Below are positions 20,860-24,453 of a stretch of 35,345 nt of DNA, piece by piece. A program made the translations under genes and the position numbers. Each line of letters starts with the position of its first letter. The stretch's first letter is position 1. Source of the DNA: a virus (taxonomy: Duplodnaviria; Caudoviricetes). Below the pieces are notes generated by a model, which was not told the origin of the DNA, did no database searches, and saw only the letters and a program-made list of their open reading frames with translations. The stretch covers positions 1 through 35,345 of IMG/VR virus record IMGVR_UViG_3300020426_000016, one strand, 5' to 3'.

Positions 20860-20869
20860 GAAATTGATT

Positions 20870-22111
20870 ATGAGCAAGACCAGAGCCAATACCGTGAATT
20901 TATCCGGGAATGCAGTAAAGAAAGTAAGCCTTAGCGGCAATAAAGCCAAGGATATTCAAAAGGTAACCAATTTAATGGTCGATGTGGTACGCCGCCAGCG
21001 AAGACTTTGGCGAAAAGAAATAAACGACTGGCAGGCCGGAAGGTTTGCCCTGTACCATTCTGAACTTCCCCGAACCTATCCCATGCAGGAAGTTAACGAG
21101 GACATCATGCTCGATGGGCATCTAACAGGTATTACTGAAAACCGCACCCTTAGAACCACGAACAAGCAATATATTTTTGCCATTGATGGCATTAAGGATG
21201 ATAAACTGAGTGAATTTATTACCGATCAGGAGTGGTTTGAATTTATTACCGATGAAGCCCATAAATCAACCTATTACGGGTATTCTTTACTTTGGGTAAA
21301 AGAGTATGTACCTGGACAAATTAAAGAAGTGGAGCTTATCCCCAGGGGTTTGGTGATTCCTCAAAAAAAGGTATTGCTCTACAGCTACGATGCCGACCGT
21401 GGTATTGATTTTTCCGAGATTGACGATATCTTGATCTATGCGCAATTTTATGGCCATGTGGGGCTTTTGGAAAAAGCCGCACCATACGCCATTTTAAAAA
21501 GACATTCATGGGGTTCCTGGGATGAATTTGAGGAATTATTTGGAATTCCTATCCGTATCGCTAAAATAGCCTCACAAAGTGAAACCGTGAAGAATGAAGT
21601 AGCCGGATGGTTGGAAGATATGGGATCAGCTCCCTACGGTGTTTTTCCAATTGGCACCGAGGTCGACATTAAAGAAAACTCTAAAACAGATTCCTTTCAG
21701 GTTTTTTATAAGAAAATTGAAGCCCTGGACAAAGAGCTATCTAAATTGGTACTTCACCAAACCATGACCACTGAAAACGGAAGTTCCAAAGCTCAGGGCA
21801 GTGTTCATGAAAATACGCTCGGCGAAGTGGTTTATGCCGATGAAAAGAAAATGCTGGCATTTCTAAACCGTCGTTTGGTACCGGCTATGCGAAAGCTTGG
21901 TTATAACATCCCGGACAATGCAAAAATCATTGTAGAGAAAACAACTGATCCCAATAAACAAATCGATATCGATGGGGTACTACTTAAAAATGGGGTGAAG
22001 CTTAGTAAAAATTACATCGAGGAAACTTACGGCGTGGAAGTGGAAGCCATTACGGACAATGCTCCAGACCAGGACGAAGAAGAGGAAGAGGACACCACGG
22101 GAAAGCCCTAA
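20870..22111 (+). CDS. Portal protein (Mu gp29 / DUF935-like)
   Basis: DGHLTG, YYGYSL, WDEFEELFGIPIRIAK, ELSKLVLHQTMTT, SSKAQGSVHE and YIEETYGV; ATG at 20870. Confidence 0.9.
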   Translation: MSKTRANTVNLSGNAVKKVSLSGNKAKDIQKVTNLMVDVVRRQRRLWRKEINDWQAGRFALYHSELPRTYPMQEVNEDIMLDGHLTGITENRTLRTTNKQYIFAIDGIKDDKLSEFITDQEWFEFITDEAHKSTYYGYSLLWVKEYVPGQIKEVELIPRGLVIPQKKVLLYSYDADRGIDFSEIDDILIYAQFYGHVGLLEKAAPYAILKRHSWGSWDEFEELFGIPIRIAKIASQSETVKNEVAGWLEDMGSAPYGVFPIGTEVDIKENSKTDSFQVFYKKIEALDKELSKLVLHQTMTTENGSSKAQGSVHENTLGEVVYADEKKMLAFLNRRLVPAMRKLGYNIPDNAKIIVEKTTDPNKQIDIDGVLLKNGVKLSKNYIEETYGVEVEAITDNAPDQDEEEEEDTTGKP

Positions 22112-22138
22112 GCCTGCTAAGGTTGCATTATCGTAGCA
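22099..22138 (+). other. Candidate -1 programmed frameshift site joining portal to MuF
   Basis: G GGA AAG in the portal frame (22099-22105), just before the stop. The -1 frame (GCC CTA AGC CTG CTA AGG TTG CAT) runs without a stop into the MuF ORF. Possible hairpin TGCTA..TAGCA at 22115-22138. Confidence 0.7.
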
Positions 22139-23394
22139 AATGTTCCCATACTCCTACGATACAACTTGCAAAGCAAGACCAGCATTTTAGCGGGCTTATA
22201 GAGGAATATGTCAGGGAGCTTTTTGACGAGCGCCAATTATCTGAAGGTACCCGAAATAAACTTTGGCAGTATTATTATGATGAATTATCGGACGGGGTGG
22301 ATATTGGTTACTCCCCGGAACTGGAGCAATACGACCCGGAGCTTGCAGCCAGGTTAAAGTATAACATTGCCGAATTTTCCGCTTTTAAGGAAACCTCTTT
22401 TAAGAAACAACTGGAGGGACTCCTTACCAAAAACGGAAAAATACAGCCCTGGTCTACATTCAAGAAAGAAGCTTTAAAAGTATCCGGTGATTACAATGTA
22501 CGCTGGTTAAAAACAGAATATCACCAGACCGTTGCCACGGCAAACATGGCCGGAAAATGGAAAGATTTTGAAGCCAATAAAGACCTGTACCCGAATTTAA
22601 AGTATGTAACCGCCGGAGATAACCGGGTAAGGGAAGAACACCGCCAATGGGACGGACTGGTATTGCCTATTAATCATCCCTGGTGGGCTACGCATTTTCC
22701 GCCTCAGGATTGGGGCTGTAGATGTGGAGCCGTACAAACCGATGAAGAAGTGAGTACGGATATTCCAGGCGGTGAAGCTAAGAAAGGATTTGCGAACAAT
22801 GCCGGTTTATCCGGTGAAGTGTTTACCGATATTGCCTATAAAGATGGGCTTAGCGATACGGAAATCGACCAGGCAACGGCAACGGCCAATAGATTATTTA
22901 AACGGGATACCAGGCTTAAAGATTTCAAAACCTATAAGGATGATCCGGGATTTACCGATGTGAAATTCAACGAAGAAAACAGCGGTTTAAAAGCAACCCA
23001 TAAACTACATAATTTCGATAAGCGTACCGGTAAGTATGAAAAGCATGTACGGGATTTATTTTTTAACCAGGGCGATAAGATCGAGCTGGCCAAAGAGCTG
23101 GCCGCAAAAGGGGAAAAAGTTATTGAAGGCGTGAAGAAAGTAGACGGCTATCTAAACAATGCTTCCATCGATATCAGTTCTATTTTAGGAGAGGGAAAAA
23201 ATACGATCTCCAGGGCGTTAAAGCATTCCGCCGAAAAGCCGGCCGATGTGGCCATACTGTATTTCCCGGATGCAAGTAAATTTTCTATGAGTAGGCTTAT
23301 CACCGGAATTAAAAAATACGAGGGAAGGCATGACTTTAGGTTTCAAAAGATCATTTATATAGTAGATGACAAAATCAGGGAAATAAAGCCATAA
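22123..23394 (+). CDS. MuF (gpF) minor head protein with C-terminal CdiA-like PD-(D/E)xK toxin domain
   Basis: WLKTEY, YPNLKYVTAGDNRVREEH, HPWW..HFPPQDWGCRC = MuF. Extension with E...VDGYLN..SIDISSI...AILYF resembles CdiA C-terminal tRNase-type folds. Only a TTG start is available. Confidence 0.8.
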   Translation: MHYRSKCSHTPTIQLAKQDQHFSGLIEEYVRELFDERQLSEGTRNKLWQYYYDELSDGVDIGYSPELEQYDPELAARLKYNIAEFSAFKETSFKKQLEGLLTKNGKIQPWSTFKKEALKVSGDYNVRWLKTEYHQTVATANMAGKWKDFEANKDLYPNLKYVTAGDNRVREEHRQWDGLVLPINHPWWATHFPPQDWGCRCGAVQTDEEVSTDIPGGEAKKGFANNAGLSGEVFTDIAYKDGLSDTEIDQATATANRLFKRDTRLKDFKTYKDDPGFTDVKFNEENSGLKATHKLHNFDKRTGKYEKHVRDLFFNQGDKIELAKELAAKGEKVIEGVKKVDGYLNNASIDISSILGEGKNTISRALKHSAEKPADVAILYFPDASKFSMSRLITGIKKYEGRHDFRFQKIIYIVDDKIREIKP

Positions 23395-23465
23395 AAAAAC
23401 CGCCAACGGCTTAGAAAGCTTTTGGCGGTTGGAGCAATCCGCGGCAAAATGCCTACGGTCTGCAT
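23393..23465 (-). ncRNA. Putative small RNA: tRNA-acceptor-like minihelix + UCCA + terminator, convergent with muF
   Basis: The minus strand reads GCAGACCGUAGGCAUUUUGCCGCGGAUUGC-UCCA-ACCGCCAA...UUGGCGG-U7, directly downstream of TATATTTG (23476-23469). Confidence 0.6.
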
Positions 23466-23468
23466 TGG

Positions 23469-23501
23469 CAAATATACAAATAGTTTTAAATATCGTTGCA
23501 A
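23469..23501 (-). promoter_or_regulatory. Promoter for the minihelix RNA
   Basis: TATATTTG (23476-23469), with TTG at 23501-23499 (22-nt spacer). Confidence 0.6.
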
Positions 23502-23507
23502 TGGTAT

Positions 23508-23690
23508 TTAATCGGCATATACACCCTCAAATTTAATAATGGCATCGATGGTACGGGGGGAAAGGAAAAACTCCTTTTCGGCTTCCTGCAAAAGGGCATC
23601 CCATCGCCATTGCGGATGTTTACGCTCCAGGCAGGAAAAATAATCCCTGATTTTTTGGTTTCTGGCTTTAATACGATCTGGACGGCTCAT
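23508..23690 (-). CDS. Small HTH protein (Mor/C-like DNA-binding domain), probably leaderless
   Basis: RNQKIRDYF...AEKEFFLSPRTIDAII; ATG lies 5 nt after a consensus promoter. Confidence 0.65.
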   Translation of the reverse strand: MSRPDRIKARNQKIRDYFSCLERKHPQWRWDALLQEAEKEFFLSPRTIDAIIKFEGVYAD

Positions 23691-23695
23691 ACCGC

Positions 23696-23726
23696 CAAAA
23701 TTAACGTCTTTTAAGATAACGGCAAA
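23696..23726 (-). promoter_or_regulatory. Consensus promoter for the small HTH gene
   Basis: TTTG (23726-23723), 19 nt, TAATTTTG (23703-23696). Confidence 0.75.
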
Positions 23727-23742
23727 AAACTTGTTAAAGCAT

Positions 23743-23776
23743 AAAAAAAGCCCCCTGAAATTAACCAGGGGGCTTT
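23743..23776 (-). terminator. Intrinsic terminator closing the moron/early transcript
   Basis: AAAGCCCCCTG/CAGGGGGCTTT stem with A7 on the left (U7 on the minus strand). Confidence 0.8.
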
Positions 23777-23793
23777 ACTACTTGTATTATAAG

Positions 23794-24453
23794 TTATAGA
23801 CTTTCATAAATATCTAAAGTACGCTTTATAATAGCTTGTTCCTTAGCTGTTAAATTTCGATCCTTGTGGTATTGAGTACCAATATATCTAATTTTAGGAT
23901 TCTTCGATAGTGCAATATCCCTTAGCATTTTAATTTCAGATTCACGAGCTGGCATATCGTACCACTCCCAAATTACGGAGTTATGATCTCTCTCAAAATT
24001 CGCTTTAAGATCATAATCATTATAATCTGTCTTAACTTTAATTTGCTTTATAAAAAGCCAATCATCGGCAGTATATTGAAATTTTAGTCTTAAAAAATAA
24101 CGATCTTGTTTTTCTCCTATGTATGGGTAAACAAAGTTCCTGTTGGTATAAGCTGGTGTTCTATTATCCTGATAAAAAACCAGCCCTTCAAAATCATCTT
24201 TTTCAGTTCTAAAATTTTTCAATTCATTCAGAGCTTCAGATCGTTTTGCAGTTGCAATACTGTCTGAAATTCTTTTTTCTTCGGCTGCTTTTTCTTCAGC
24301 AGCTTTAATATCTTTTGCACTTACGATCTCTTCTTTTGCATCATTATTTGATTGAGTATCGGTTGTGAAGGCAACGAAAACTCCGATTAAGAAGAAAATA
24401 CCGATTAATCCAAAGAAACCAATTATGCCCCATTTAAGTAATTTTTTTATCAT
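23794..24453 (-). CDS. Membrane-anchored accessory protein (moron)
   Basis: N-terminal TM, charged linker, globular domain (DDFEG...YTADDWLFI...WEWYD); own -7 box and terminator; AT-rich. Confidence 0.7.
   Translation of the reverse strand: MIKKLLKWGIIGFFGLIGIFFLIGVFVAFTTDTQSNNDAKEEIVSAKDIKAAEEKAAEEKRISDSIATAKRSEALNELKNFRTEKDDFEGLVFYQDNRTPAYTNRNFVYPYIGEKQDRYFLRLKFQYTADDWLFIKQIKVKTDYNDYDLKANFERDHNSVIWEWYDMPARESEIKMLRDIALSKNPKIRYIGTQYHKDRNLTAKEQAIIKRTLDIYESL

Follow-up and report, generated by a model that had tools for sequence, protein, structure and literature searches.

A convergent tRNA-end-like RNA gene as a candidate immunity factor for the nuclease tail of a phage MuF protein

The window analysed here, a 35-kb virus record taken at its full length (35,345 nucleotides; IMG/VR record IMGVR_UViG_3300020426_000016), is assigned to a Mu-like temperate phage on the basis of matches to a transposase, a transposition protein, a repressor, a terminase and a portal protein. 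Relatives of this phage are found in Bacteroidota. The portal gene (20864-22111, plus strand; Portal_Mu, Pfam PF06074, E 3e-64) is followed on its 3' side by a muF ORF of 423 aa, counted from a TTG codon (22123-23394, plus strand). The MuF domain occupies residues 121-202 of the muF product (PF04233, E 1e-14), and residues from about 260 to 423 (22900-23391, plus strand) form a CdiA_C-like PD-(D/E)xK nuclease domain, with a predicted active site composed of E306, D341, D350 and H368. Two traits of MuF polymorphic toxins are thus present, namely a MuF domain placed N-terminal to a variable C-terminal toxin domain and a position behind the portal gene in the packaging module of a temperate phage; close MuF relatives bear other tails or no tail. 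Convergent to muF, the minus strand carries a Bacteroidota sigma-A -7 box, a 12-bp acceptor-stem-like hairpin, a discriminator U with CCA and an intrinsic terminator. A 60-aa gene, also on the minus strand (23508-23690), is not part of this module. Further along, a 219-aa gene (23794-24453, minus strand) encodes an N-terminal membrane segment and is flanked by a TAnnTTTG promoter of its own (24496) and a strong terminator (23776-23747); it gave no family match of note and has the look of cargo that the lysogen expresses.

The convergent unit opens with the box TATATTTG (23476-23469, minus strand), separated by a 5-nt spacer from the hairpin (23463-23434). The hairpin consists of 12 pairs, two of them G.U, capped by a 3-nt loop and interrupted by one bulged A and, at stem position 5, by an A.A mismatch; its outer positions read G1-C72, C2-G71, A3-U70, G4.U69 and A5.A68. 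Its fold energy is -14.1 kcal/mol (z -2.9), and the 76-nt unit as a whole has a z of -4.3, none of 200 shuffles being equally good. The U-CCA follows directly (23433-23430, minus strand) and leads into the terminator (23430-23393, minus strand), whose stem spans 23430-23398 and whose run of seven U (23399-23393) shares bases with the stop codon of muF (23392-23394). The final A of the CCA is paired inside the terminator stem and may belong to the terminator. An earlier sequence-only reading of this DNA had described the promoter, the hairpin, the U-CCA and a terminator overlapping the muF stop, and both sequence and fold place each of them exactly where it had put them. In Bacteroidota the promoter box lies at -12 to -5, according to the available text of PMC9723704, and a purine is the preferred first transcribed base, according to that of PMC7366714; promoters of this kind fall outside a generic sigma-70 scan. 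The primary transcript is predicted to measure about 71 nt, with the hairpin beginning at the transcription start or one base after it. As in a minihelix, the RNA has a helix of about 12 bp with an N-CCA end (12 pairs and U-CCA). The 7-nt T-loop consensus is absent, the window having a 3-nt U loop and its homologues variable loops. Neither the window stretch nor 40 loci yielded an Rfam match at gathering score, and the 33 sub-threshold matches in the window stretch were all without meaning. Two metatranscriptome assemblies from the same sample contain no match over 22100-23800, a result that is uninformative either way.

The nuclease assignment is based on an AlphaFold2 model of the muF tail (pLDDT 94.9), on structure comparisons with Foldseek and VIA and on conservation among 157 homologues. 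In Foldseek, the top match of the model is 4g6v_A, the CdiA-CT of 1026b (E 7e-5), which is also the sole match at E <= 0.001. In the VIA comparison, chain A of 4G6V is aligned over 122 residues with Z 12.1 and rmsd 3.2, the next row reaching Z 6.4. These comparisons support the CdiA-type PD-(D/E)xK family call, made by eye in the sequence-only reading. Sequence searches are less telling: they yielded no solved structure, viral contigs scanned with a single protein gave no relative, and the window protein misses the gathering score of Pfam CdiA_C (PF18451) with 16.5 vs 26.6 bits, a cut-off passed by two of eight close homologues (27.7 and 29.5 bits). The three Atlas clusters listed have a score of 0.93, and PF18451 is found on 12% and 22% of the members in two of them.

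In the available text of PMC9086364, CdiA-CT 1026b has an active site composed of E187, D214, D223 and K242, and this toxin cuts the acceptor stem of tRNA-Ala and binds tRNA 1:1. A profile alignment of the muF tail to 4g6v is weak (E 0.3); it pairs E306, D341 and D350 with E187, D214 and D223 and places H368 next to K242, so that the CdiA_C trait of a catalytic E, D and D with a basic residue on the next helix is present as far as this alignment goes. Among the 157 homologues, the acidic positions are kept in 155 (E306), 156 (D/E341) and 156 (D/E350), and K352 and H368 hardly ever occur together: 37 have the lysine only, 111 the histidine only, two have both and seven neither. An active-site migration can thus be followed across this set, the lysine of the D/E-x-K position being traded for His368. 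The sequence DISS at this position had been taken as a hint of reduced activity, a view that does not hold, since the active 1026b lacks a lysine there as well, two residues past the second of its aspartates, and in the family H368 stands in for K352. DISS is rather a clade trait, the motif lysine having given way to His368, and a damaged site was rejected in view of the active sites of 1026b and of the related E479 toxin and of the K352/H368 exclusion. To judge from its residues, the active site of the tail looks intact. The tail resembles CdiA-CT/CdiI 1026b (PDB 4G6V, PF18451) in fold, in the E/D/D positions and in the basic residue on the following helix. On the other hand, identity is about 20%, the muF tail has an extra N-terminal helix and hairpin, it carries His for Lys (as does the E479 toxin), and it stands in a phage rather than a CDI context with no CdiI-like gene. 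The modelled fold and its active-site residues make the muF tail a predicted cutter of tRNA acceptor ends of the 1026b kind, and we infer its tRNA cleavage activity and its target by analogy with that toxin.

The muF frame is -1 relative to that of the portal gene and stays open across a slippery heptamer G_GGA_AAG (22099-22105, plus strand), which lies one codon ahead of the portal stop; no ATG stands ahead of the MuF domain. Among 74 distinct MuF loci, 58 show a -1 overlap with a long upstream ORF, three a +1 overlap and 13 none, and the upstream ORF matches portal in 54 of the 58 junctions of -1 type. An in-frame slippery heptamer is found at most 60 nt from the stop in 55 of these 58 junctions, against 82 of 513 in the background, and it stands exactly one codon before the stop in 35 of the 58, against 9 of 513. 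Downstream of the heptamer, a hairpin is present in 39 of 55 junctions and absent in the G_GGA_AAG class, this locus included. A -1 frameshift at 22099-22111 probably makes a portal-MuF-nuclease fusion of about 843 aa. Such a fusion would enter the capsid, and delivery of the toxin would need cleavage. Since MuF is probably made as a portal fusion, delivery with the virion is uncertain, and we lean somewhat against it; the toxin may act instead in the producing or in a superinfected cell. In the available text of PMC5576092, packaging in the virion and delivery on infection are themselves put forward as a hypothesis.

Viral, genome and metagenome collections, together with searches of whole genomes, supplied the homologous loci. 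We looked at 120 of them; once 11 that were truncated or had no hit were set aside, the remaining 109 gave 70 non-redundant proteins; the conservation counts refer to 54 non-redundant loci with a profile score of at least 100 bits. A convergent TAnnTTTG box located 35-130 nt past the muF stop is found in 52 of these 54 loci, compared with 287 of 4144 background windows (6.9%), and the remaining two loci hold the same RNA inverted to the sense orientation. A hairpin, called blind to the tail as a stem from the first purine 4-5 nt past the box, starts at the predicted +1 in 44 of the 52 loci but in only 3 of 128 control promoters. The offset from box to hairpin is 4 nt in 38 of the 44, the window having a 5-nt variant, and this 4-nt offset corresponds to the transcription start if the box occupies -12 to -5, as given in the available text of PMC9723704. 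The helix of the family spans 29-50 nt. After the stem, the 44 called hairpins, five miscalls included, continue with N-C in 37, N-CC in 30 and N-CCA in 15 cases. In an alignment of 38 RNAs, 88.5% of the cells of the eight outer pairs are paired, and seven of the eight vary on both sides; the covariation score of 0.64 exceeds that of shuffled alignments (0.34; reached by none of 500) and of slid controls (at most 0.31), in a test that leans towards structure because the RNAs, besides being related to each other, had been trimmed according to the hairpin call. The hairpin-NCCA-terminator that the sequence-only reading had proposed to look for in homologues is conserved as a covarying hairpin with N-C(C), whereas the full CCA is restricted to 15 of 44. 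Likewise, from the proposed acceptor-plus-T minihelix the acceptor-like hairpin with N-C(C) stands and the T-loop is missing, so that the RNA is better described as an acceptor-end mimic. A small peptide encoded in the hairpin was also considered and discarded, as the lengths spread over all three frames (19, 13 and 12 of 44).

The RNA can also be found by itself. A scan with the Gly-type RNA alone yielded 46 loci, of which 14 are distinct and 10 stable, and eight of these ten lie beside a nuclease domain. The Trp-type scan yielded 68 loci, 50 distinct and 18 stable; nine of the stable ones have a terminator (judged by eye), eight of which abut MuF or a nuclease domain, and the other nine gave no hit. 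A loose pattern for the exact end of the window RNA was swamped by chance: with 8 of 64 parts covered, it gave about 1100 matches, and none of 27 stable ones lay beside a toxin. In one locus of the Trp type (L334, match 901-940), the hairpin has a promoter and a terminator with no long adjoining ORF, and is possibly an orphan immunity RNA or a broken gene. In the two loci with inverted RNA (L074 and L077, 3' of the toxin gene), the promoter is a TAnnTTTA variant; these inverted copies are one event. In the sister loci L010, L051 and L076, stem base 1 is also preceded by a 5' leader, and processing would then be required. We consider it very probable that this RNA gene is genuine and is coupled to the nuclease.

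To relate the RNA to tail type, control MuF genes were drawn by Pfam from 502 genomes of two Bacteroidota orders, ignoring the tail. They gave 46 loci, of which 39 were classified (six nuclease and four peptidase labels by eye) and seven dropped (no usable hit, off locus or intein-like insert). A convergent promoter within 140 nt is present in 24 of 28 nuclease-tailed MuF and in none of the 11 others. By tail, the promoter accompanies 15 of 17 PD-(D/E)xK and 9 of 11 PBECR/LPD3-like domains, none of five HExxH or ADP-ribosyltransferase tails and none of six short MuF. The shape of the RNA varies as well, PD-(D/E)xK tails having a short hairpin with a separate terminator and PBECR tails one long hairpin; the earlier suggestion that the RNA switches with toxin type is thus borne out in this architecture. 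In distant PD-(D/E)xK tails, N-CC follows only three of eight blind calls.

The PBECR2/LPD3-type RNase tails (L185, L189, L191, L201-L203, L205, L206, L225 and L226, 3' of MuF, and L099) have a convergent promoter within 300 nt in 10 of 11 cases, and the outer stem of their RNA is the terminator. No Rfam match was found for these RNAs. Their interpretation as anticodon-loop mimics found no support, an exact host loop occurring in 1 of 10 vs 2.0 expected. The long hairpin linked to PBECR tails is a candidate second class of RNA antitoxin.

As had been noted from the sequence, no immunity ORF follows muF on the same strand: within 400 nt past its stop, no same-strand ATG ORF of at least 50 aa starts in the window. 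In 41 of 46 loci of the window's clade no immunity-like ORF lies 3' of the toxin, and an ATG ORF of at least 50 aa starting within 40 nt is found in 5 of 46 homologous loci, where the ORFs run across the RNA gene. The 60-aa gene at 23508-23690, which the sequence-only reading had named as the possible real immunity factor, turned out not to be tied to the toxin and was rejected in this role. Indeed, its homologues adjoin one MuF that is short (L216) and another with an ADP-ribosyltransferase tail (L217), and within the toxin clade it is confined to the window copy and to L007 and the L013 group, most clade loci lacking it. It has no Pfam, PHROG or PADLOC match.

The RNA ends were compared with the tRNAs of two host-group genomes, in which tRNA-Gly and tRNA-Thr have G1-C72, C2-G71 and U73, and tRNA-Trp has A1-U72, C2-G71 and G73. 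The counts use 42 RNAs, six miscalled ones being left out. G1 is combined with U73 in 30 of the 42 and A1-U72 with G73 in seven. The best host match is Gly alone for 21 RNAs, Gly or Thr for six and Ser or Trp for four; nine start with GUG and are without a host tRNA counterpart. There are also departures from tRNA: of the 42 RNAs, 20 have G1.U72 and nine are mismatched at pair 5:68, and a T-loop is absent. Host tRNA gene rows (L102-L160) encode C74 in 57 of 57 and C74-C75 in only 3 of 57, and the near-invariant C74 of the RNAs fits this convention. Mimic RNAs and host tRNA genes share this C74, yet the RNAs encode CC far more often. In five distant CdiA_C tails (L188, L198, L209, L215 and L183), hairpins 3' of MuF have other tRNA-like ends by eye: Cys-like in L209, Gly-like in L198 and with C73 in L215 and L183.

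The type of end clusters on the toxin tree, with 9 changes against a shuffled mean of 16.3 (none of 200 as low), 12 of the 54 labels having been set by eye and the clustering reflecting few independent events. The window toxin sits among the clade of G73 RNAs, matching it at 14 of 18 discriminating columns, whereas its own RNA has G1-C72 and U73. In the window RNA, positions 1, 72 and 73 have changed together to the Gly/Thr pattern. This concerted change favours a tRNA-like constraint on the RNA; on the other hand, the mismatch between RNA and toxin clade weakens the claim that the RNA end names the target. The A3-U70 pair of the window agrees with neither Gly nor Thr; among the host tRNAs Thr comes closest, reaching only 8 of 10 points. 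If specificity did switch, residues 367 and 402-403 are candidates for it.

The reading that we favour, and regard as probable, is that the convergent RNA is a substrate-mimic RNA antitoxin, acting as the immunity factor for the MuF nuclease. Conservation covers the promoter, the hairpin, the N-C(CA) and the terminator, which together take the place in which an immunity ORF is usually found. According to this scheme, the nuclease tail, with its 1026b-like fold and active site, would be a toxin predicted to cut tRNA acceptor ends. The RNA would be transcribed by the host housekeeping sigma factor without phage factors, so that it would be present in the lysogen and soon after DNA entry. It would start at or next to stem base 1, and either be trimmed and CCA-completed like host tRNAs or keep its terminator attached. 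It would then sit in the nuclease active site as a poorly cleaved or sacrificial substrate mimic, and its non-tRNA features (G1.U72, the mismatch at pair 5:68) may blunt cleavage or charging. The toxin would be made late, with the tail on some portal subunits via the -1 frameshift, and would harm cells without the RNA.

Such a system has parallels in several known ones. As in type III toxin-antitoxin systems (ToxIN/AbiQ, AbiF, AbiV), an RNase toxin would be checked by a small non-coding RNA. The ToxI antitoxin RNA is made of pseudoknot repeats, whereas the RNA described here resembles a tRNA acceptor end. The toxin here is a PD-(D/E)xK domain on a phage head protein, not ToxN or HEPN, and its RNA is a single stand-alone gene located downstream, convergent in 52 and sense in 2 of 54 loci, while type III RNAs lie upstream on the toxin strand. 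By analogy, and provided that the RNA is an inhibitor, as seems probable, the unit would work like a type III antitoxin but fails the layout of that family. In the available text of PMC13064643, the AbiF and ToxI RNAs would block the toxin active site. Described MuF polymorphic toxins (Jamet 2017; Apk2; Bxa) likewise have MuF behind the portal gene of a temperate phage and a swappable C-terminal toxin (PMC5576092 and PMC11699363, in the text available). However, their immunity is by proteins from adjacent small ORFs; here an RNA gene takes this place, as it does in most of the nuclease-tailed Bacteroidota MuFs sampled, and MuF is apparently read as a portal fusion by frameshift. The minihelix substrates of FaRel2 indicate that acceptor stem, discriminator and CCA are enough for recognition by a toxin (PMC11559606, in the text available). 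Those minihelices are synthetic substrates, and phage decoy tRNAs are full tRNAs replacing the target, in contrast to the natural, anticodon-less gene without a T-loop that is tied here to its own toxin. A type I antisense antitoxin has to be complementary to the message of its toxin; the RNA is convergent to muF in most loci and in sense in one sister pair.

PADLOC gave no match. In the literature searched, we came across no RNA-based immunity to MuF or CdiA_C toxins; such an RNA may nonetheless be listed among candidate motifs. No such RNA is mentioned in the available portions of PMC5576092, PMC9086364, PMC11699363, PMC9723704, PMC7366714, PMC11559606, PMC12948488, PMC5512222, PMC13064643 and bioRxiv 10.64898/2026.08.28.747851, nor was an account found in the AbiF literature as covered by reviews.

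An inhibitor is not the sole role that the RNA could have. It could be a partner or product of the nuclease, which would trim or carry the minihelix or be switched on by it, the minihelix perhaps serving as a decoy to tRNA-targeting defences or tRNA-handling enzymes of the host. The comparative results indeed show that RNA and nuclease are coupled but not the sign of this coupling, and the window RNA end departs from its own toxin clade. This role is nevertheless unlikely: the RNA occupies precisely the place that same-strand ORFs take in non-nuclease MuF toxins, short MuF have no such RNA, and an intact tRNase-type site without an immunity ORF needs some neutraliser. Another possibility, which we consider quite unlikely, is that the unit silences muF in cis, as an RNA antisense to its 3' end or by convergent collision in a type I-like manner, the hairpin only stabilising the RNA. 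The convergent orientation in 52 of 54 loci and the U-run that overlaps or abuts the stop codon would suit such silencing, and since no plus-strand terminator was called here, the muF message may cross the unit. It would leave unexplained the two sister loci that hold the same RNA in sense, and a stem pairing, discriminator and C74 kept beyond antisense need. Moreover, the overlap with coding sequence amounts to a few bases, and the architecture differs between PD-(D/E)xK and PBECR tails.

Immunity could also be provided by a protein, from the 60-aa or an unlinked gene, or the domain could be inactive, leaving the RNA with an unrelated job. Apart from the window protein falling under the Pfam cut-off, the evidence goes the other way and makes this very improbable: homologues of the 60-aa gene accompany toxin-free or ADP-ribosyltransferase MuF and are missing from most clade loci, and the near-complete retention of E306, D/E341 and D/E350 (155, 156 and 156 of 157) with the nearly exclusive K352/H368 speaks against an inactive domain. 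Finally, the element could be a terminator region with a chance promoter-like motif, since 6.9% of background windows contain TAnnTTTG and simple terminators abound. Against that background stand the 52 of 54 loci with the box, the 4-nt spacer in 38 of 44, the covariation and the reciprocal RNA-only scans, which leave this explanation hardly credible.

If the convergent RNA is indeed a substrate-mimic antitoxin, it bears on a field in which immunity to polymorphic toxins has been taken to be a matter of proteins and MuF nucleases lacking an immunity ORF have gone unexplained. A mimic of a tRNA end, 30-70 nt long, would bring a new toxin fold and a new RNA design into the biology of RNA antitoxins; it would account for the tolerance of lysogens to MuF nucleases and sharply predict the tRNA target of each toxin. 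The module is small, with about 165 aa and 71 nt, and offers dozens of natural variants. It is also common in the sampled prophages, since 24 of the 39 classified MuF loci, from two Bacteroidota orders, combine a convergent promoter with a nuclease tail. One wider reading, which we put just short of an even call, is that Mu-like phages of Bacteroidota have exchanged protein immunity for RNA immunity throughout their RNase-toxin repertoire, with acceptor-end mimics that name the attacked tRNA for PD-(D/E)xK tails, long-hairpin RNAs for PBECR tails, and toxins entering the capsid as frameshift extensions of the portal. If true, these phages would provide the first polymorphic toxin system whose immunity genes encode RNA, and its targets could be read from the antitoxin sequence.
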